Assembly (NCBI GenBank): GCA_041389765.1
Contig: JAWKRE010000002.1
Coordinates: 1-11,907, forward strand
DNA length: 11,907 nt
From: Polyangiaceae bacterium
GTDB lineage: Bacteria > Myxococcota_A > Polyangia > Polyangiales > Polyangiaceae
Reading direction: 5' to 3'
In this document: positions 1-9,118 of the stretch, in pieces
How the letters are laid out: each line of letters opens with the position of its first letter
How positions within the stretch are numbered: position 1 is the first letter of the stretch
Position numbers and translations under genes: made by a program
Notes under the pieces: model-generated
Database searches by the model: none
What the model was told of the DNA's origin: nothing
Seen by the model: the letters and a program-made list of their open reading frames with translations, nothing else

Positions 1-994
1 GTGATAGCGAGTCCGCCTTCGCCCCGACATCCGCGCTCGCCGCCACGTCCACCAGGTCCGACTCTTTCAGCTCCACCGGCTCCGGCGGAGGCGCGGACAC
101 GCTCTGGATGCTCGACCACGAGGCCGCCGCGATGCTCGCCTCCGGCGCCGCGCCCTGCACGATCGCCACGAACGCGTCCGTCAGCTCCCGCACCGATTGA
201 AAGCGCTCCTCCCGGTTCTTCGCCAGCGCCCGCGCAAAGAAAGGATCCAGCGACTCGGGCAGCTCCTGCACGAACGTCCCCACCTTCGGCGGCGGCTCGA
301 CAAGCACCTTCGACAGCACCGTCCCGAACCCGTCGCCCGAAAATGGCAGGTGCCCTGTCAGCATCCGATAGGCGATCACCCCCACCGCCCACACGTCCGT
401 CCGGTGGTCCACGTCCTTGTCCCCCCGCGCCTGCTCCGGGCTCACGTAGTGCGGAGTCCCCACGATCTCCCCTGTCCGCGTCGACTCCCCCCGCAGCTCC
501 CCCGGCTGCTTCGCGATCCCGAAGTCAAGCACCTTCAGGATCTCGTAGTCGTCCACGCGCGCGAGAAACAGGTTCCCCGGCTTGATGTCGCGGTGCACGA
601 TCCCCGCCTCGTGCGCTCGCCGCAGCGCCTTCGCCACCTGCACGAGCAGGTCCGCCGTCTCGCTCACGGGCATGCGCCCCATGCGCCGGAGCCGCGTCCG
701 CAGGTCCTCCCCGCGCAAGAGCTCCATCACCAGATAAGGAGTCCCCTCCTCGACCCCGAAGTCCTGCACGTGCACGACGTGAGGGCTCTCGATCGCCGCC
801 GCCGCCCGCGCCTCCCGCTCGAACCGCACCACGAACGAGCGCGACCCCACGAACCGGGCGTCGAGGAACTTCACCGCGAGCTGGGACCCCAGCTTCACGT
901 GCCGCGCCACCCACACCGAGCCCATACCCCCGCGCGCAAGCTGGGCCTCCAGCCTGTACTTTTCCGCAATGACAGTTCCCGCCGCAATGCGCAT
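1..994 (-). CDS. Hanks-type Ser/Thr protein kinase, intact, 3' end (C-terminus) runs off window start
   Basis: Minus-strand translation from the ATG at 992-994 reads MRIAAGTVIAEKYRLEAQLARGGMGSVWVARHVKLGSQLAVKFL. This gives the Gly loop (GGMGSV), the VAIK-type Lys (LAVKF), [14 protein letters not shown] at rc ~575-616, DFGIAK and SPEQ. An in-frame TAG lies 5 codons upstream of the ATG. I translated 2..540 fully and found no stops and no frame change. The annotated antisense ORF 197..1021(+) is its shadow. Confidence 0.9.
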   Translation of the reverse strand, partial: MRIAAGTVIAEKYRLEAQLARGGMGSVWVARHVKLGSQLAVKFLDARFVGSRSFVVRFEREARAAAAIESPHVVHVQDFGVEEGTPYLVMELLRGEDLRTRLRRMGRMPVSETADLLVQVAKALRRAHEAGIVHRDIKPGNLFLARVDDYEILKVLDFGIAKQPGELRGESTRTGEIVGTPHYVSPEQARGDKDVDHRTDVWAVGVIAYRMLTGHLPFSGDGFGTVLSKVLVEPPPKVGTFVQELPESLDPFFARALAKNREERFQSVRELTDAFVAIVQGAAPEASIAAASWSSIQSVSAPPPEPVELKESDLVDVAASADVGAKADSLS

Positions 995-1235
995 TCGCCG
1001 TGGAGCCTAGCGCTGCAATGACGCACGGGAAGGCGCCCGCGAATCGAATTACGCATCTTCTGTGATCTGGCCGGAACATTTGACAGTTCCGCCCAGCAAA
1101 TGGTCTCATGCCCGCGCGGGAGCCGCGCCCTCACCCCCTCATTGTGCCGCCCCGCGTCACATTGCGAGCAGGTCGTCAACCGTCATTGCGCACTGTCATG
1201 GACATGAGTCCCCCCCGTTGCCGGTTCGCAATGAC
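965..1235. promoter_or_regulatory. Leader/promoter region of kinase 1 with repeated CGCAATGAC / GTCATTGCG motif and palindrome AATGCGCATT (986-995) overlapping the start codon
   Basis: Direct reading: CGCAATGAC at 965-973 and 1227-1235, tGCAATGACg at 1014-1023, reverse GTCATTGCG at 1182-1190, and half-sites at 983-991 and 1160-1166. A perfect 10-bp palindrome lies at 986-995. The 14-mer tgacagttcc(c)gcc occurs at 970-983 and 1081-1093. Confidence 0.3.
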
Positions 1236-1238
1236 GGG

Positions 1239-2048
1239 TCAGCGCGCCTTCGGGTCCACCCGGTCCACCTTCGCGCAGCGGCGCGAGTCCGTACACAGCG
1301 CACCATTCGGAATACGACAGCACACTCGCCCGCCCGAGCAGCTCGCGTCCGCCTTGCACCGGTTGGCGGCGCAGCATGCCAGTCCCTTCTTCCCCGCAGC
1401 GTCGAAGTCCTCCTGCGTGTAGCAGGGCGTGCAGGGCTTTTCGCCTCCTGGCAGCGACGCCGCCGCCGCCCGCACCTCCGCGTTCTCCCGCAGATCCAGG
1501 CTCTTCTGGAAATAGGCCCGCGCCCCCGACACGTTCCCCGCCCCCTTCTCGATGAGCCCCAGATTGTAATACACCGCCGCGAGCGGCATGGGGCTCTTGG
1601 GCTTCATCGCCAGCGCCCGGTCGCACTCGGCCTTTGCGTATCCCAGCTTGCCAGCCTGGATGTTCTTCCAGCACCGGTCGTTCCACTCCCACCCGCCGCG
1701 CTTGTCGATGAGCCCCACGTCCTCCGGAGGCAACACCGGCTTTCGCGCGTTGGTCCCGTCGTTGTCCGAGGCGGCTCCCACCGGCACGGGCACAGGATTG
1801 CCGTTCGCGGCTGTCGGCACGGGCGAGGGCACGGGCTCCTCCGCCACGATCCCCCCCGCCCCGCACTCGCACGGCAAGAACCCGCTCCCCTCGGCGTTGC
1901 ACGCCTGTGATCCCTGCGTCCCTCCCGGGCACGCACAGGCAGTCTGCTGCCCCGGCACACACTGCTGCGACCGGCAGGCGAAGACCCCCACCGAAACGAG
2001 AAATGCCGCGGCCACGAGCCCCACCCCCTTGCGCAAGATCGCCATCAT
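1239..2048 (-). CDS. Secreted/lipoprotein-like Cys-rich protein with one TPR-like motif (hypothetical), intact
   Basis: ORF track 1239..2198(-). The plausible start is the ATGATG at 2043-2048. It gives MMAILRKGVGLVAAAFLVSVGVFAC, a signal peptide with Cys following (lipobox-like). A Cys-rich segment follows (CVPGQQTACACPGGTQGSQACNAEGSGFLPCEC), then a Pro/Val linker. A TPR-like helix pair follows (KLGYAKAECDRALAMKPKSPMPLAAVYYNLGLIEKGAGNVSGARAYFQKSLDL), then a Cys-rich C-terminus. There are no frame breaks. Confidence 0.6.
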   Translation of the reverse strand: MMAILRKGVGLVAAAFLVSVGVFACRSQQCVPGQQTACACPGGTQGSQACNAEGSGFLPCECGAGGIVAEEPVPSPVPTAANGNPVPVPVGAASDNDGTNARKPVLPPEDVGLIDKRGGWEWNDRCWKNIQAGKLGYAKAECDRALAMKPKSPMPLAAVYYNLGLIEKGAGNVSGARAYFQKSLDLRENAEVRAAAASLPGGEKPCTPCYTQEDFDAAGKKGLACCAANRCKADASCSGGRVCCRIPNGALCTDSRRCAKVDRVDPKAR

Positions 2049-2361
2049 GCCTGTCACGCTACCACGACAGCGAACCCTCGCGATAGCCTGTCGCGGCGCC
2101 CACCATGCAGCGAATTGCCGCCACGCGCCCCCCAAGCACGTAGCGGAGGACCGTCCCGGTCCTGGAACAAGGCTTCCGGTGGCGCGGCACGCCGCCAAGC
2201 GGAAACGCGAAGAGCGTGGCGCATCAGGCTTGGATCCAAGGTGTTCTGTGGCGCTTTCCGCCAGACGAAAACGCGAGCTCGGCGAGACCGTCGGAACGCC
2301 CGCCCTGCGTGGAAGTCCCGCCAGACGCCCGCCCAGCAGGTAAATCCACAGACTGCTAGTT

Positions 2362-3463
2362 CTAGAATCTCCCCCCCACCGACAGGGCAGCTCCCTCCGG
2401 CGTGACGATGGGCGAGATGGCCAGTGTCCGCCTCACTGCCCCTGTCTTCTGCTCCTTGGGCCCGCTCACGAAGAACAGCACGAGCCCCGCCCCCGCCGCC
2501 GCGAGCCCCACCGGCAGCGCGATGGTCGAGACGAGCGCCTTCGTCCCCGCATCATTGATGACCGCCCGCCCCGCCGGACTGCACACCTTGCCGGGACACA
2601 GCGCCGGATCGCTCTCCGCGTTCCCCACGTCCGCCGCCGCGAGCCCCCCCAGCACGCCCCCCACCGCGGCCCCCGCAATGCCCACCCCCATGAGCACGTA
2701 CGAGGCTGTCCGCATCCCTGACCCCTCCTCGCCCCCGCCTGTCGCCGTTGCTGTCGGCGCGGCTGTGACCATGGCAGTCCCTGTCGGCGCAGCCGTGGTG
2801 TCCGGCGCGGTCGTGCCGCTCGCTGCGGCCGTGGCCGTGGCTGTCGGCGCAGGCTCGGGCGACTTCGTGAGAGGGGGAATCGCCGCCGTCTTCGAGTCCG
2901 CGTTGGGCCCCACGTTCACGGTGACTGTATACGCCTCATACCCCGGCGCCACCGCCTCGATCGTGTGATCGCCCGGGTCCACGAACAGGGGAGTCCCCAG
3001 CATGGCGGCCCCCATCTCCACCCCGTCGCTCTTCACCACGAGCCCCGGCACCGCCGCCGCCGTGATGGTCAGTCGCGACAGCTTCGGTTCGAGCTGCTTG
3101 GCCAGGTCGCGCGCCCCTGCTCGCGGTCCTGCCCGAGCTGCCCCGCGAGCACCGCCGCTTCCTTGTATTCCGTGAACGCCGACGCCGTCTTCCCGAGGCT
3201 CTCGTAGCACCGCGCCAGGTTGAGCTGAGTCCCCGGCGACGGATCGAGCTTCTGGCTCTCCGCGAACTTGGGGCAAGCCTCCGCGTACTTCTTCTCCCCC
3301 ATGAGCTTCTTGCCCGCCTGAAACAGCGACTCTGCCGCGACCTTCGCGCCTGCGCCGGGGCCGCGGGCGCGTGAAGCGCAGCGCTCACCGCGAGCGCGAC
3401 AGCCACGATGAGCCGCCGCCCGTGAAGCGCCCTTGTCGGTCTCGAACCGTCTCTAGCGATCAT
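2362..3463 (-). pseudogene. Signal-peptide TPR-like + PEGA-domain protein with two C-terminal TM segments; needs 2 frameshifts (about 3115 and about 3340) to read
   Basis: Three minus-strand ORF pieces join into one protein. Piece 2936..3463 gives the N-terminus MIARDGSRPTRALHGRRLIVAVALAVSAALHAPAAPAQA (signal peptide). Piece 3069..3302 gives GEKKYAEACPKFAESQKLDPSPGTQLNLARCYESLGKTASAFTEYKEAAVLAGQLGQDREQG (TPR-like). Piece 2362..3276 gives ARDLAKQLEPKLSRLTIT...VVKSDGVEMGAAMLGTPLFVDPGDHTIEAVAPGYEAYTVTVNV (PEGA-like), then a T/A/P linker and two hydrophobic helices. The junction at 3114-3117 is repaired by adding one C to a C4 run, which gives ...DREQGARDLAKQ. Confidence 0.7.
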
Positions 3464-5268
3464 CGAAGATGCTCTTTCCCTTGGTATCGGCGGGCTTTGC
3501 CGTCGAAGTAGCGGTCGCCTTGGCCCGCCCGCACTGCCGGTCGCGCCTCTCCCCGAGGTGGGATGGTTCCGCCGGCGACTGCCGCACTGGTACGTGGCCC
3601 CCGCCGCCGCGTCGTCGCTCGATGTCGACCCGCTCGCCGTCGCTGACGCCTCCGGAGCGGGAGTGTCCGTCGCCGCCGCAGCCGCGCTGGCAGTGGCGGT
3701 GACGCTGGCAGTGACACTGGCAGTCTCGCCGGAGGAGCCACGCTCGTCGCCGGAGAGCCCATCGCCTTCTCCGCCGCCGCCGTGGCCGGGCCGGAGCCGA
3801 CGCCGACCCGATCCCCACGAGCAGCGCCCCCGCGATCGCCCCGCCCGCGACGAGCACCGCCGCCGCGATCAGCAGCGGCGCCTTGCTCGAATTCGCCGGT
3901 GGAGGCGCCGGCGCCGCGATCACCATATCCGGCGCCGTCGACGGCCCGATCCCCGCCCCGCCCTTTCGGCCCCGAGCGCCCCCGGAGGCACGGTGTTGCC
4001 CGTCGCCGCCGCCTGCCCCGGAGCCCCTGTCGCGCCCGCGGCCGGCCCCGGCCCCGAGGCCCCGGTCACACCCCGGCCCCCGCCTGTCCCGGAGCCCCCA
4101 CCTGTCCCGGAAGCCCCGCCGCCGCCCCCAAAGGCGCATCGAGCGCGATGGTCCCCCCCGCCAGCGGAGCCCTCCCCGCCTGCCCCGCAGGCATCGCAGG
4201 CGCGTCGATCGCGACCGTGCCCCCGCGATCGGAGGCCGCGGATCCATCGCCAGCGTCCCCCCGCGTGCGCGCCGAGCCGGTGGGGATACGGGCTGTGGGG
4301 ACACCCCCGTGGGCGGCGTCAGCCCCGCAGCGCGGGCGATCCGATCGATGTTGGGCTGCGATCGTGCGGGCGCGAACGGCGCCAGCGCCACCGCAAACTC
4401 CGCGATGCTGCCATACCGCTCTGCCCTGTCGCGGGCGTACGCGCGCTCCAGCACCGGCGCGAGCGAGGGCGCAGATCCGGCTGCACGTTCGCGAGCGGCG
4501 TGGGAGTCCCCGTGAGCACCTCCGCGCAGAGCTGAGGCAGAGTGTCCGCATAGAAAGGCTGCTTGCCCGCGAGCAGCTCGTAGAGCGAGATCCCCAGAGC
4601 GTAGATGTCCGTGCGGTGATCGACCCCCGCGTCTGCTGCATCTGCTCCGGCGACATGTACAGCGCGGACCCCATCGCCGTCATCGTCTTGGTGAGGTTCT
4701 CGGTGGACTCTGCCATCTTCGAGATGCCGAAATCGAGCACCTTCACCAGCGCCGAGCCGTCGTGCCGCCGCGTGAGGAACAGATTGGCAGGCTTGATGTC
4801 GCGGTGAACGATCCCCGCGGCGTGCGCCTCCGTGAGGGCCTCCGCCGCCTGAAGCATTGTAGTCCACCGCGTCGTCCAGCTTCTGCACGCCGTTCTTCAT
4901 CAGCTCCCCCGCGAGGTCGTGCCCTGGAGGAACTCCATCACCATGTACGGAGCCTCGTTTTCGAGCGTCCCGACGTCGCTCACGCGCGCCACGTGCTCGC
5001 TCTTGATCTTCACCGCCGCCTTCCCTCGCGGAGAAAGCGCGCCACCGCCTCCGGGTGCTGCGAACGTGGATGTCAGGAACTTGAGGGCGACCCGATCATC
5101 GAGCACCATGTGCCGCGCCTCGACGACGACCCCATCCCCCCTGTCCGATCACGCGGTCGACTCGATACTTGCCCGCGAGGACGGTGCCCGGCGCGACAGG
5201 CGCGTCGTTGGCGACCGCCGGCCCTGCCGACTCCGGGGTTCCTGCGGGGTAGTGGTGGACTCCGTCAT
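3453..5268 (-). pseudogene. Receptor-type Hanks Ser/Thr protein kinase (catalytic domain + Pro/Gly linker + single TM + repetitive extracellular tail), at least 7 frameshifts
   Basis: The pieces on the minus strand are as follows. An ATG at 5266-5268 sits 5 nt after the upstream gene stop. GTVLAGKYRVDRVIGQGGMG lies in a second frame. Then comes VVVEARHMVLDDRVALKFL...APYMVMEFLQG (ORF 4900..5109), then [20 protein letters not shown] (4319..4900), then [28 protein letters not shown]...VLDFGISK...YMSPEQ (4066..4857). The kinase continues with [24 protein letters not shown] (4319..4900 again) and ...[19 protein letters not shown], followed by the TM helix KAPLLIAAAVLVAGGAIAGALLVGIGS (3453..4454). 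After that comes (VTAS)n low complexity. The shift at 5130-5133 is a missing C in a C4 run. The exact 3' end is ambiguous, between 3453 and 3470. Confidence 0.85.
3683..3725 (-). repeat. In-frame 12-nt tandem repeat (gctggcagtgac, about 3.5 copies; encodes VTAS repeats) in the post-TM tail of kinase 2
   Basis: Direct reading of ctggcagtggcggtgacgctggcagtgacactggcagt. Confidence 0.7.
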
Positions 5269-5274
5269 GACCGT

Positions 5275-7225
5275 TACCTGCCCAGCTTTCCGAGGATCAC
5301 ATCATTCGAGCCGACCGGCGTGACCGCCCCACCGCCGAAGTCCGCAGTCTGGCTGAACGAGCCCGCCAGCAGCGAATACCCGGCCCCGTCGACAGAGCCA
5401 GTCCACCGTGCCCCCAGCGCGTGAACCCACTGCACGTTGCCCGAGCTGTTCAGCTTGGCGACGAACGACCCCGCCTTGGGCGTCCCGGAGTCGGCAGCAT
5501 GGTGTTGCCCAGCATGAAGGGCTCATCGTACACCCCGGCGATCCACGGCCCGTCCGTCGTCGCCGTGACGCCGTGGAGCCTGTCGTTCCCGGCCCGCCGA
5601 ACTGCTTTTGCCACAGGACAGTCCCGCTCGAATTGTAGGCCACCACCACGATGTCCTGCGCGTCCGGCGTGAGCACCGTCCCGTTGAAGTTGCTCGGCGC
5701 GGTCAGCGTCCCTGCCACGATGGGCCCCGAGAGCCCCTGCGCCACCTTCGAACGAGAACCCACCCACGTCCGCCCCCTTCATCCACAAGGGCGCTCCGTT
5801 CAGGTCAATCTTGGCGAGGAAGAACGTCTGTCCCGCCGCGAGCGGCCCTGTCCCGATATCGAACCCCGGAGTGCTCGTCGTCCCCACCACGTACGCCGCG
5901 CCGCCCACGTAGTCTCCCCCAGGCTCCCTGACCCGAACATCCCCTCATCCCCTGACCCGCCCAGGTTGATCTTCCACTTGACCTGATTGGCCCCGTCGTA
6001 TTTCACGAGGAAGATGTCCGACCCCCCCACCTTCGCGATGGGGTGCGTGTTTCCCTGAGCCGACGAACACCGAGTCGCTGTCGAACTCGCCGGCCACGAG
6101 GTACCCGTCGAACACCCACTCTGTGCTCACACCTTCTGGTTGTTCCCGCCCCCGTACCCCAGGCTGAAGATGTGATTCCCGGACGTGTCATACCGCGCCA
6201 CGAACCCGTCGAACCCCTGTGAGATCCCCAGCGCGCCCCCGCCCGGGTCGAAGTTCCCGAACAGATAATACCCCGCCGCGAGCACCCCGTTGTTGTTGTG
6301 GAAGCTCACGTCGTTGATCGCCTCCGACGCGTCCCCGGAGAGCTGCTTGCTCCACCCGAACGACCCGCCGGGTTGTAGACAGCCAGGTACACATCCCCCC
6401 AGTCGTTCCCTGCGAATTCATGAACCTGCCGCCCATGTCGAGCGACCCCTTGAACCACCCGAGAATACGGCCTTGTTCGAGAACCCCGCGACGGCCACCC
6501 CGAGCTGTACTCGCTGCCGAACCCCCTTGGGAACGACCACACCGCAGTTGAACCCGTTGCAGTCCTCGTCCTCCGGCGCCCCGCAGAACTCGTCCGCCGG
6601 CACCACCTGCCCCAGGCACAGGTTGGGGTTCATGAGATCTGGCAGGATGCCAGTCGCCGGACACTGCAACGTCGACGACTTGCACTGTCCCACACCGGCA
6701 GTCCCCGCGGGCCCCAAAACACGTGAGCGCCGTGTCGGTGTGCAACACCCGTTCTCCGCCAGCGAGAACCCGTCGCAGTCGTCATCCTCCGGCGTCGTGC
6801 AATCCTCGAAGTTGCCGGGCAGCGTCTGCCCCTTGCAGGCGTCGAAGCCCGTCCCCTCCAGGTTGCACTTCTGCTGCCCCTTCTTGCAGACCCCCACGCC
6901 CTCCGTCCCGTTCGGCCCCTCGTAGCAATCCACCGACTCGCCCGGCGTGCAGATCATGCCCCGCCGGTGCCCCCGGTGCCGCCGGTGCCGCCGCCGCCTT
7001 GCGCTGTCCCGCCGGTGCCGCCGCCGCCTTGCGAGGTGCCCCCGGTGCCGCCGCCGCCCTGCGACGTCCCCCGGTGCCGCCCTGCGTCGTGCCGCCGGTG
7101 TTGCCGCCGGAGCCCCCGTCGGCCGCGTCCGTGAAGTCGTCGATGCCGAGGATCAGCCCGCACCCGGTGGAGGCCAGGGTGAGCGGAAACGTCGCGGCGA
7201 TGAAGCGAAGGGTGTACGTTGCATG
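5275..7225 (-). pseudogene. Lipoprotein with Gly/Thr-rich linker, Cys-rich E-x-C-x3-E-D-D-D-C-D/N-G repeats (MopE/'putative metal-binding motif'-like) and SBBP beta-propeller repeats; at least 6 frameshifts
   Basis: The ATG at 7223-7225 plus one C-run repair gives MQRTPLRFIAATFPLTLASTGC, a lipoprotein signal. The linker is GGSGGNTGGTTQGGTGG(TSQGGGGTGG)x3. The Cys-rich block is at 6418..6957(-): CTPGESVDCYEG...EDCTTPEDDDCDG...EFCGAPEDEDCNG. SBBP-like repeats are spread over three frames: FDGFVARYDTSGNHIFSLGYGGG, SDIFLVKYDGANQVKWKINLGGSGDEG, FLAKIDLNGAPLWMKG, VVVAYNSSGTVLWQKQFGGPG and FVAKLNSSGNVQWVHALG. The protein ends ...SNDVILGKLGR with TAA at 5275-5277. The shifts at 7068-7072, 6959-6962 and 7210-7212 are all minus-one events in homopolymers. 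Confidence 0.8.
6958..7100 (-). repeat. In-frame about 30-nt tandem repeat (gccggtgccgccgccgccttgcg.ggt.cc, 4-5 copies) encoding the GGTGGTSQGG linker; one copy carries a frameshift
   Basis: Direct reading of 6958-7100 shows near-identical 30-mers. The last copy lacks 6 nt and has a C5 run where the others imply C6. Confidence 0.7.
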
Positions 7226-9021: not shown

Positions 9022-9027
9022 CCTGCC

Positions 9028-9118
9028 GACTCCCGCCTTCGACTCCCGCCTTCGACTCCCGCCTTCGACTCCCGCCTTCGACTCCCGCTGTTGACCCCCG
9101 CCTTCGACTCGCCCCGAA
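9028..9118. repeat. 13-bp tandem repeat gactcccgccttc: 4 perfect copies (9028-9079) plus 3 degenerate copies, intergenic between convergent genes
   Basis: Direct reading shows perfect copies at 9028, 9041, 9054 and 9067. The copies at 9080, 9093 and 9106 carry 3, 1 and several mismatches. The unit length is not a multiple of 3. Confidence 0.9.

Follow-up and report, generated by a model that had tools for sequence, protein, structure and literature searches.

The 9-mer repeats clustered around the start of a Ser/Thr kinase gene in this uncultured Polyangiaceae myxobacterium are, as judged from comparison of sequences, the first codons of the kinase gene itself, one conserved promoter box, and mirror-image duplicates. 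Since the copies derive from the kinase's codons, the promoter box and mirror duplicates, they do not make up a conserved set of regulator sites. With a probability of about 0.4, we consider them to be lineage-specific nested inverted repeats produced by duplication at the locus, any effect of which would be exerted at the RNA level and on read-through transcripts only. The repeats would be built from a single word, ACTGTCATTGCG, and the source copies would be features that the kinase gene needs anyway.

Copies of the repeated word around the kinase start

The lipoprotein and kinase genes are both located on the minus strand, and the sequence 995-1238 is the spacer between the lipoprotein stop and the kinase start. 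The kinase start codon is ATG at 994-992 (minus strand). As the initial annotation described, this ATG is contained in a perfect palindrome, AATGCGCATT (986-995); an in-frame TAG is located 15 nt upstream. The motif cluster was described as lying upstream of and over the kinase start, which holds for the copies in the spacer, but those at 965-973 and 983-991 are within the kinase coding sequence. The lipoprotein gene is called identically in the sister MAG GCA_041389705.1 (locus L001, 5172-5981), and its TPR matches stay under the Pfam cut-off. The upstream gene and the copies are as follows, the signs of the copies referring to the strand that carries the GTCATTGCG orientation.

1239-2048, minus strand: upstream gene for a 269-aa TPR, Cys-rich lipoprotein-like protein, from translation; stop TGA at 1241-1239
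1227-1235, minus strand: copy A, exact; the mRNA-sense strand reads GTCATTGCG
1193-1200, plus strand: partial copy B', ACTGTCAT, an 8-mer identical to the 5' part of copy F plus flank; read from the sequence and covered by the palindrome alignment
1182-1190, plus strand: copy B, exact, in opposite orientation (mRNA-sense CGCAATGAC); mirror partner of copy F
1152-1166, plus strand: copy C, GTCAcATTGCG (1156-1166), degenerate with a 1-nt insertion, and the overlapping distal box, from sequence and ortholog alignment
1138-1146, plus strand: degenerate copy D', CTCATTGTG, 7/9 match, inside a 39-nt insertion
1014-1024, minus strand: copy D, GTCATTGCA (1022-1014), a one-mismatch copy that overlaps the proximal GCGTCA box (1024-1019)
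983-995, minus strand: copy E, CGCATTGCG (991-983), degenerate (CGCAATGCG, 7/9 match), codons 2-4 (R-I-A), together with the ATG and the palindrome, from translation and orthologs
965-979, minus strand: copy F, GTCATTGCG (973-965), exact, codons 8-10 (V-I-A); GGAACT (codons 6-7) precedes it, and the two jointly give the coding copy of the 10-mer GGAACTGTCA (979-970)

Within the window (the whole 11.9-kb stretch of DNA analysed), the exact 9-mer CGCAATGAC/GTCATTGCG is found only at 965-973 (+), 1182-1190 (-) and 1227-1235 (+), the signs here being those of CGCAATGAC. The expected count is 0.09, and three copies were reached in none of 200 shuffles; per 10 Mb of genome, some 50 copies of the 9-mer would arise by chance. 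Four full copies had been claimed; three are exact, but the fourth, TGCAATGAC at 1014-1022, carries a single mismatch. Exact and degenerate copies together span less than 280 nt, and the pentamer CAATG/CATTG appears seven times in the region, against an expectation of about 1 over eight such regions combined. A naive count was not unusual, since GC-rich 9-mers recur: 34% of order-2 Markov windows contained some 9-mer at least three times per 280 nt. The naive count was replaced by a score weighted with word probability, in a look-elsewhere-corrected simulation. The composition-weighted score of the cluster, 6.03, exceeded all of 600 simulated windows (maximum, 5.8), indicating that the cluster at the kinase start is real, local and enriched over background, as the initial annotation had suggested. 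The duplication of a 14-mer at a distance of 110 bp was borne out for a 10-mer, TGACAGTTCC, which is an exact duplicate (970-979 and 1081-1090, with 111 nt between), while the 14-mer itself matches at 13/14 positions with one indel and its local-alignment score was equalled by 14 of 1000 shuffles.

No further exact 9-mer was found in about 48 kb of additional same-species sequence (about 64 kb sampled altogether), in agreement with the view that the word does not belong to a dispersed repeat family. Since the copies are truly clustered at this locus and the word does not form a dense dispersed repeat, neither of the two outcomes that the initial annotation had set against its own proposal, genome-wide commonness and a dispersed repeat, was obtained. 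Insertion of a dispersed REP-like or MITE element behind the lipoprotein gene is very improbable, although the arrangement resembles REP/BIME elements and MITEs in being an inverted repeat that can form a hairpin and occupies an intergenic spacer immediately past a stop codon. Unlike such elements, the sequence has no further copies in the sampled 64 kb, and the additional 48 kb gave no blastn-short match to the spacer; a REP copy density of 1 per 10 kb would yield zero copies in about 48 kb with a probability of about 0.01. In addition, the arrangement GTCATTGCG-N25-50-CGCAATGAC was found over 185,579 species genomes in scattered unrelated taxa and at a chance-level number, and one hairpin arm is common to the kinase coding sequence.

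Conserved boxes and the kinase promoter

The 9-mer array is absent from all seven orthologous kinase loci, both upstream and at the start. The orthologs conserve about 140 nt of upstream DNA in other boxes, namely GCATGAGACC, TGTCAA, GYGTAnnnnGnTTCGC and GCGTCA. In the window the following elements were identified.

1102-1111, minus strand: conserved box GCATGAGACC, shared by the window, L002, L003 and L004
1067-1096, minus strand: central local palindrome CTGGGCGGAAC-TGTCAAAT-GTTCCGGCCAG, a hairpin in MFE structures; the best symmetry centre adjoins it
1039-1054, minus strand: conserved box GYGTAnnnnGnTTCGC, from ortholog alignment; the window reads GCGTAATTCGATTCGC
1004-1009, minus strand: TAGGCT, a probable -10 hexamer separated from the ATG by 9 nt; TAnnnT in orthologs

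The central palindrome encloses the TGTCAA box (1085-1080; TTGACA on the plus strand), which is invariant in six loci, and also the upstream copy of the 10-mer GGAACTGTCA (1090-1081). At both places carrying this 10-mer, the window differs from the ortholog sequence. The proximal box GCGTCA (1024-1019) is present at the aligned position in 8/8 orthologous regions, and its inverted partner, the distal box TGACGCGG on the sense strand (1159-1152), is also present in L003 and L002. A DNA pattern of the conserved block matched L001-L005 and nothing in genome_contigs or metagenome_contigs; likewise a back-translated pattern of the kinase N-terminus matched nothing in metagenomes. The exact CGCAATGAC copies of locus L008 are located solely in coding sequence (AAMTS repeats), and were set aside as coincidence. 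An upstream ORF was considered that would start from the ATG within GCATGAGACC; its frame stays open in the window as well as in L002 and L003, but in L004 codon 6 is a stop, and the ORF was rejected. By alifold, the 140-nt block gave only a weak consensus structure (-7.95 kcal/mol; covariation term, +0.53).

Conserved codons of the kinase N-terminus, R-I-A and T-V-I-A, account for copies E and F. The R-I-A and (V/I)-I-A codons are retained in orthologs, but as ATC rather than ATT. ATT is a rare codon, used for 7 of 129 Ile across 10 genes; in the kinase gene 2 of 14 Ile codons are ATT, and both fall within motif copies. The palindrome over the ATG corresponds to Met-Arg-Ile written as ATG CGC ATy, for which the orthologs read ATGCGnATC. 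The first 12 kinase codons are rich in rare A/T-ending codons (GGA, ACT, ATT, ATT, GAA).

In 8/8 orthologs a TAnnnT hexamer with variable inner bases ends 6-9 nt before the start codon, with a per-sequence chance of 0.003; the same geometry was found for 5 of 41 other genes of the MAG. The 9 nt between TAGGCT and ATG (ccacggcga) include no Shine-Dalgarno-like run. At 16-18 nt upstream of the -10 element, no TTGACA-like -35 hexamer was detected, the sequence being CTTCCC in the window and CTACGC or CTGCGC in orthologs, and a sigma-70 consensus scan gave a promoter on neither strand. [quoted passage not shown] Sigma-A-type promoters of high-GC bacteria can give rise to leaderless mRNAs, which have been documented extensively in Actinobacteria. 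The kinase gene resembles them in TAnnnT at 6-9 nt before the start, the lack of a Shine-Dalgarno sequence and the A/T-rich first codons, but differs in the absence of a recognisable -35-like hexamer and in the conserved boxes within the upstream 140 nt, the leaderless 5' end here being a prediction from sequence. Among myxobacteria, Myxococcus pexR has been proposed to be transcribed in this leaderless, sigma-A-type manner (PMC12754779).

The protein-binding sites of the kinase promoter are likely to be the other conserved boxes and not the 9-mer. Since several orthologs retain both GCGTCA and its inverted partner TGACGCGG, some protein probably binds GCGTCA-like sites. Compared by eye with consensus sequences, the elements were poor matches to sigma-54 (TGGCAC-N5-TTGC), the Myxococcus LexA box, the Cheo box, attC R''/R' cores, DnaA boxes, Fur, CRP/FNR and MrpC.

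To the initial annotation the cluster looked like an array of operator sites. In its explicit form, a regulator recognising GTCATTGCG (core GTCAT) would repress the kinase promoter, possibly by looping, which we regard as rather unlikely; the assignment of sites in the promoter spacer (D, -28 to -20), past the start (E and F) and at upstream auxiliary positions (A, B and C) is doubtful to the same degree. Local over-representation of the 9-mer in both orientations is consistent with such an array, and, given the inferred -10 element, D, E and F are placed where repressors act. Conservation of GCGTCA and of its inverted partner about 95 bp upstream, and the departure of both GGAACTGTCA sites from the ortholog sequence, also point in this direction. 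As in the multi-operator loops of lac (O1/O2/O3), gal (OE/OI) and deo, copies of the word are spread over about 270 bp, in the gene and far upstream. Unlike the sites of these systems, however, the individual copies are without dyad symmetry, and their centre-to-centre spacings, calculated from the coordinates as 18, 31, 143, 25 and 45 bp, are irregular and inconsistent with helical phasing. Copies C, E and D' match poorly, and the array is not conserved at the seven orthologous loci. No DNA-binding domain was found among the 7 neighbouring proteins, so that the neighbourhood is without a cognate regulator gene, and there is no second target in about 64 kb of genome. Three of the copies fall on conserved codons or on a conserved promoter box, and the mirror order of the copies indicates duplication. 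Thus the operator proposal gained no support from the analysis.

Mirror symmetry and predicted RNA-level pairing

Copies B, C and D' mirror the source copies D, E and F, together forming an imperfect palindrome that covers about 230 bp and has the conserved TGTCAA box at its centre. The alignment score of the palindrome arms was 34 against 12.3 +/- 4.5, equalled by none of 500 shuffles. After scanning of all centres, the symmetry remained at z 4.5 (0/60), the orthologs ranging from z -0.9 to 2.5; for the inner arms alone, p was about 0.009. The structural elements involved are listed below.

1112-1150, minus strand: 39-nt lineage-specific insertion, from alignment, with copy D' and a GCGCGG/CCGCGC hairpin
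1180-1237, minus strand: A:B stem-loop with an 11-bp stem, CCGUCAUUGCG / CGCAAUGACGG, and a 36-nt loop, from inverted-repeat search and folding
1147-1193, minus strand: anti-start segment complementary to 1000-962, from RNAduplex

Taken alone, the 39-nt insertion showed no significant similarity to the promoter arm (equalled by 551 of 2000 shuffles), and its interpretation as an inverted copy of the promoter was dropped. The upstream neighbour gene is different at every orthologous locus (SIR2, HAD hydrolase and aminotransferase; lipoprotein here). For the lipoprotein homolog P0002 the kinase is not adjacent, so the gene junction is not shared. We infer that the copies originated by inverted duplication on a local scale, or by templated repair, at a junction where another gene had taken the place of the upstream neighbour.

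The A:B stem-loop begins 2 nt past the lipoprotein stop codon and folds at -28.0 kcal/mol (z -2.9) on the sense strand and at -27.8 kcal/mol (z -3.3) on the plus strand. On the lipoprotein mRNA, copies A and B would fold at the 3' terminus into a terminator-like or stabilising hairpin. Of the features of an intrinsic terminator, a stable stem-loop after the stop is present, but a short loop and a U-tract are not: the stem is followed by GGUUGACG, and a terminator scan of the minus strand made no call. Strong folds are common after stop codons in the MAG (best 70-nt MFE of about -11 to -44 kcal/mol), several of them being compact hairpins near the stop. The energy of the A:B hairpin is ordinary for this GC-rich genome, and its loop is long (36 nt). 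For hairpins that lack a U-tract and follow genes of GC-rich bacteria, a role as terminators or 3'-end stabilisers has been proposed. The A:B hairpin is similar to these in its position past the stop and in the strong folds that follow other genes of the MAG, but differs in the unusual length of its loop, in a stem of only 55% G+C, and in that one arm repeats coding sequence of the next gene.

The initial annotation alternatively proposed RNA structure around the ribosome-binding site. No Shine-Dalgarno sequence exists and the mRNA is predicted to be leaderless, but complementarity to the start region was indeed detected. By RNAduplex, the anti-start segment pairs with the start region at -47.2 kcal/mol (z -3.4; 0/300 shuffles), forming 33 pairs, 4 of which are G.U, and this pairing is included in the full-length MFE structure. 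Every non-Watson-Crick pair is G.U on the sense strand, a bias that concerns 4 positions only (p about 0.06); by strand, the duplex was -47.5 kcal/mol on sense versus -34.6 on plus. The predicted unpaired probability of nt +1 to +30 was 0.08 in the read-through RNA versus 0.31-0.46 in orthologs, where the anti-start pairing is not conserved (z -0.4 to +1.05). For the leaderless transcript, too, folding predicts a mostly paired 5' end (unpaired probability, 0.18).

Transcripts reading through from the upstream gene would carry the B-C anti-start segment, which is able to form pairs along the initial 33 nt of the kinase ORF, and only the kinase's own transcript, beginning at the ATG and lacking B-C, would show a free 5' AUG. 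Since the predicted kinase transcript is without B-C, an RNA-level effect is possible solely on read-through transcripts, the kinase transcription start, the 3' end and read-through itself all being putative. The 9-mer would then require no dedicated DNA-binding regulator. A selective need for the anti-start segment is not obvious, because read-through RNA would in any case be translated poorly from an internal AUG that lacks a Shine-Dalgarno sequence. The A:B hairpin would form co-transcriptionally, ahead of the synthesis of E and F, in competition with the long-range pairing.

Long-range sequestration of translation starts is exemplified by the rpoS leader, the expression platforms of translational riboswitches, and translational coupling hairpins. 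As in these systems, an upstream segment here is complementary to the start codon and first codons, and an identical competitor (copy A) could serve as an anti-sequestor. The differences are that the segment is located 150-200 nt upstream, probably in the 3' UTR of another gene, that the kinase mRNA appears leaderless, that neither ligand-binding nor conserved structure is found, and that the pairing is not kept in orthologs. It is an improbable extension that copies A, B and F, being identical or complementary 9-12-mers, constitute a translation-sensing switch between two neighbouring leaderless genes. In such a switch, copy A, which begins 2 nt past the lipoprotein stop and hence inside the footprint of the terminating ribosome, would rival copy F (kinase codons 7-10) for copy B, and translation of the upstream ORF would set, on read-through RNA, whether the kinase start is buried in the duplex of about 33 bp or free. 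The duplex could target the RNA for RNase III-type processing, and the anti-start element would stem from inverted duplication of the kinase gene's own 5' end.

A small antisense or divergent RNA was also considered, for which TTGACA (+, 1080-1085) and TCTCAT would drive a plus-strand transcript through 1116-1240; this we consider highly unlikely. Invariance of TTGACA in six loci and the 17-18 nt to TCTCAT, kept in the window, L002, L003 and L004, are in line with such a promoter, but TCTCAT is without the position-2 A found in every other -10 hexamer of these genomes, and the consensus scan gave a sigma-70-like promoter on neither strand. Equally remote is the function assigned to this RNA, of which the B:A hairpin would be the 3' end and which would act on the 3' end of lipoprotein mRNA or on kinase mRNA. 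The hairpin does fold slightly better on the plus strand (z -3.3), yet the long-range duplex is 13 kcal/mol weaker on this strand, and the region downstream of TCTCAT is not conserved between orthologs. No Rfam match was obtained; a scan of 700-1600 against Rfam 15 with E up to 10 yielded only a chance-level snoRNA match (E 6.6).

Finally, the upstream copies may be a functionless relic, the neutral leftovers of a recent inverted duplication or template switch at a rearrangement junction, an explanation that is possible though it falls short of being probable. Variation of the upstream neighbour gene among all orthologous loci agrees with it, as does the limitation of the mirror symmetry to this lineage without conservation of the pairing. 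For the coding and promoter copies the corresponding proposal, tenable but again doubtful, is that they are by-products of other constraints and that the RNA pairings are without consequence; the palindrome over the ATG results from Met-Arg-Ile, and the first 12 codons are generally rare and A/T-ending. On the other hand, there are no mismatches in copies A, B and F, and the arms B/C and E/F are kept far better than the remaining palindrome. The only two ATT codons of the kinase gene both fall in motif copies, the helix mismatches are all G.U on the sense strand, and the hairpin is placed exactly behind the stop codon. These features speak against neutral leftovers.

Implications for Polyangiaceae

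A convincing-looking operator array can arise from ordinary parts, here conserved codons with a rare synonymous codon, one promoter box, and mirror duplicates at a rearrangement junction, which calls for caution in motif annotation of GC-rich genomes. The comparison also defines conserved cis-elements of a Polyangiaceae operon encoding the kinase, a TPR/PEGA protein and a P-domain protein. These elements and the leaderless kinase mRNA are directly testable predictions. If the anti-start pairing is functional, the kinase gene would be a case of a gene insulating itself from upstream transcription by means of a copy of its own 5' end.

The repeat cluster and its locus

The window forms the end of a contig of an uncultured Polyangiaceae bacterium, and its positions 1-3000 differ by a single base from the same locus in the sister MAG GCA_041389705.1 (L001). 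The lipoprotein-like gene and the kinase gene are both on the minus strand, so that the repeat cluster covers the 244-nt intergenic spacer and kinase codons 1-10.

Genes and repeat elements around the kinase start (window coordinates)
2048-1239, minus strand: gene for a TPR, Cys-rich lipoprotein-like protein (269 aa); stop codon TGA at 1241-1239
1237-1180, minus strand: stem-loop of copies A and B (-28 kcal/mol, z about -3), starting 2 nt past the lipoprotein stop codon
1022-1014, minus strand: copy D, conserved GCGTCA box plus TTGCA
994-992, minus strand: start codon ATG of the Ser/Thr protein kinase gene, which continues past the window edge; in-frame TAG 15 nt upstream
991-983, minus strand: copy E, codons CGC ATT GCG
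973-965, minus strand: copy F, codons GTC ATT GCG

The 9-mer CGCAATGAC is present in exact form at 965, 1227 and, on the opposite strand, 1182, the expected count being 0.09 per window. Of the four full copies listed in the initial annotation these three are exact, but the fourth (1014) carries one mismatch. Degenerate copies are located at 983-991, 1138-1146, 1156-1166 (with a 1-nt insertion) and 1193-1200. The palindrome AATGCGCATT over the kinase ATG (986-995) and the duplicated motif, the 10-mer TGACAGTTCC at 970 and 1081, were found as described there. A naive look-elsewhere test was unimpressive, because 34% of simulated windows contain a GC-rich 9-mer in three copies inside 280 nt; the probability-weighted word score of the cluster was matched by 0 of 600 simulated windows, which upholds the clustering near the kinase start.

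Within about 64 kb of sequence from this species (L001, the further sequences L130 and L131 of the same MAG, and the remainder of the window), the exact 9-mer was confined to its three sites and nothing similar to the spacer was found. A dispersed REP-like element, which the initial annotation had considered, is therefore very unlikely. Scanning of the hairpin arms against 185,579 species genomes, a collection that excludes the source genome, gave chance-level matches only, in unrelated taxa. The 9-mer cluster is real, local and lineage-specific. Two copies each of a GTCATTGCG...CGCAATGAC arrangement were noted in contigs L011, L060 and L062 of unrelated taxa (an alphaproteobacterial MAG, Acetofilamentum and Nostocales), and these may be separate local repeat families. 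Occurrences of CGCAATGAC in the ortholog locus L008 (4146-4244) were rejected as true motif copies, being a coincidental part of 18-nt coding repeats (AAMTS) in the kinase C-terminal low-complexity region.

In the wider locus, L001 1921-9959 (window about 5299 to beyond position 1) resembles a tandem pair of modules, one consisting of a kinase (613 aa), a TPR/PEGA protein (368 aa) and the lipoprotein, the other of a kinase (464 aa), a TPR/PEGA protein (367 aa) and a proprotein-convertase P-domain protein. Window 3000-7168 shows 140 mismatches and 68 gap openings against the sister MAG; the second kinase within it (L001 1921-3762) is intact in the sister MAG and reduced to short ORFs in the window, which could reflect a pseudogene, strain variation or assembly error.

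Tandem repeats elsewhere in the window
9027-9110: 13-nt unit CGACTCCCGCCTT, 6.5 copies, 88% matches; period no multiple of three
6961-7100 and 3820-4120: repeat periods 9/30 nt and 18/36 nt; probably coding low-complexity repeats

Conserved boxes upstream of the kinase

Kinase orthologs were recovered at 55-73% identity (loci L002-L009), with the downstream order of kinase, TPR/PEGA protein and P-domain protein kept. The upstream neighbour gene is different in every lineage, and thus the spacer lies at a synteny break. About 140 nt upstream of the kinase start are conserved among the orthologs as separate boxes.

Conserved elements upstream of the kinase (window coordinates, minus strand)
1159-1152: TGACGCGG, inverted partner of GCGTCA, present in some loci
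1111-1102: box GCATGAGACC, conserved in orthologs
1085-1080: box TGTCAA, conserved in orthologs, invariant
1054-1039: box GYGTAnnnnGnTTCGC, conserved in orthologs
1024-1019: box GCGTCA, in 8/8 loci
Ending 6-9 nt 5' of the start codon: TAnnnT hexamer (-10 element), in 8/8 loci, inner bases variable; chance 0.003 per sequence
Whole block: window 995-1111; L002 1267-1396; L003 2558-2685; L004 2870-3000; L005 2896-3000; L008 2904-3018

A sequence-only model of this block gave matches solely upstream of this Polyangiaceae kinase orthogroup, and RNAalifold gave only an unconvincing consensus structure for it (-7.95 kcal/mol, covariation term +0.53). Since the block is orthogroup-specific and without convincing conserved RNA structure, it is most simply taken as promoter and putative regulator-binding DNA, in which no -35 element was recognisable for the kinase promoter. 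These boxes, and not the 9-mer, have the appearance of genuine conserved regulatory sites. As to the proposal of an array of operator sites, the cluster is indeed real and local, but the array was found in none of the loci L002-L009 and the conserved sites are other boxes; we consider a true operator array unlikely.

On the plus strand (window 1080-1109), the TGTCAA box reads TTGACA, a perfect -35 hexamer, and its spacing of 17-18 nt to TCTCAT is kept in four lineages, but TCTCAT is without the usual A at position 2. The pair could be a divergent promoter; that the region specifies a divergent small RNA is most improbable.

Mirror symmetry and origin of the copies

Outward from about 1085, the sense (minus) strand read geneward aligns with the plus strand read away from the gene over roughly 115 nt, with a score of 34 versus 12.3 +/- 4.5 in shuffles (0/500 as good). 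Maximised over all centres, the symmetry gave a z of 4.5 (0/60), against -0.9 to 2.5 for the orthologs. Around TGTCAA lies the central palindrome CTGGGCGGAAC / GTTCCGGCCAG, and copy D is paired with D', E with C, and F with B: the upstream copies are mirror images of the gene-proximal copies. Copy A is outside the palindrome and is the exact complement of copy B. Taken alone, the 31-nt core (CATTGCG-GCGGG-AACTGTCATTGCG versus CATTGCGAGCAGGTCGTCAACCGTCATTGCG) gave p of about 0.013, and the inner arms about 0.009; for a 39-nt insertion in the distal arm (1112-1150), present in this lineage only, the mirror relation by itself was not significant.

Copies E and F fall in the conserved peptide M-R-I-A-x-G-T-(V/I)-I-A, and the palindrome over the ATG arises because Met-Arg-Ile is written ATG CGC ATy. 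The ortholog Ile codons at these positions are ATC (e.g. GTCATCGCG in L002). Among 129 Ile codons in ten genes, 7 are ATT; the kinase has only two among its 14, codons 3 and 9. The unusual aspect of the coding copies is codon usage. Kinase codons 6-7, GGA ACT, are likewise rare and create the 10-mer that recurs in the flank of the TGTCAA box.

Predicted pairing and leaderless start

Sense-strand 1193-1147 is complementary to 1000-962, corresponding to kinase positions -6 to +33, with a duplex energy of -47.2 kcal/mol (z -3.4, 0/300 shuffles equal). This pairing is included in the full-length MFE structure and brings the first 30 nt down to a predicted accessibility of 0.08. The helices contain four non-Watson-Crick pairs, each a G.U pair on the sense strand, and the same duplex on the plus strand is 13 kcal/mol weaker; this bias hints weakly at RNA-level selection. 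Comparable upstream complementarity was found in no ortholog, and the A:B stem-loop has no U-tract and a stability ordinary for sequence that follows stop codons in this MAG. A functionless relic is possible, albeit doubtful. We favour, with a probability of about 0.4, nested inverted repeats of local-duplication origin, of which the likely role, if any, would be at the RNA level: A and B may provide the upstream gene with a hairpin at its 3' end, and the kinase start may be occluded on read-through RNA. These statements on transcripts derive from sequence geometry and folding predictions.

The initial suggestion of RNA structure around the ribosome-binding site calls for revision, there being no Shine-Dalgarno sequence at the kinase start. 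The TAnnnT hexamer 6-9 nt before the start codon, without Shine-Dalgarno, is the arrangement expected of a leaderless mRNA; since the kinase's own transcript would begin at the ATG, the pairing would be possible only on lipoprotein read-through transcripts. Leaderless geometry has already been proposed for myxobacterial genes (PMC12754779). TAnnnT preceded the called start codon by 5-10 nt in 5 of 41 other genes (L001, L130 and L131; expectation about 0.4%), including the lipoprotein gene (window 2048), which may mean that leaderless mRNAs are widespread here.
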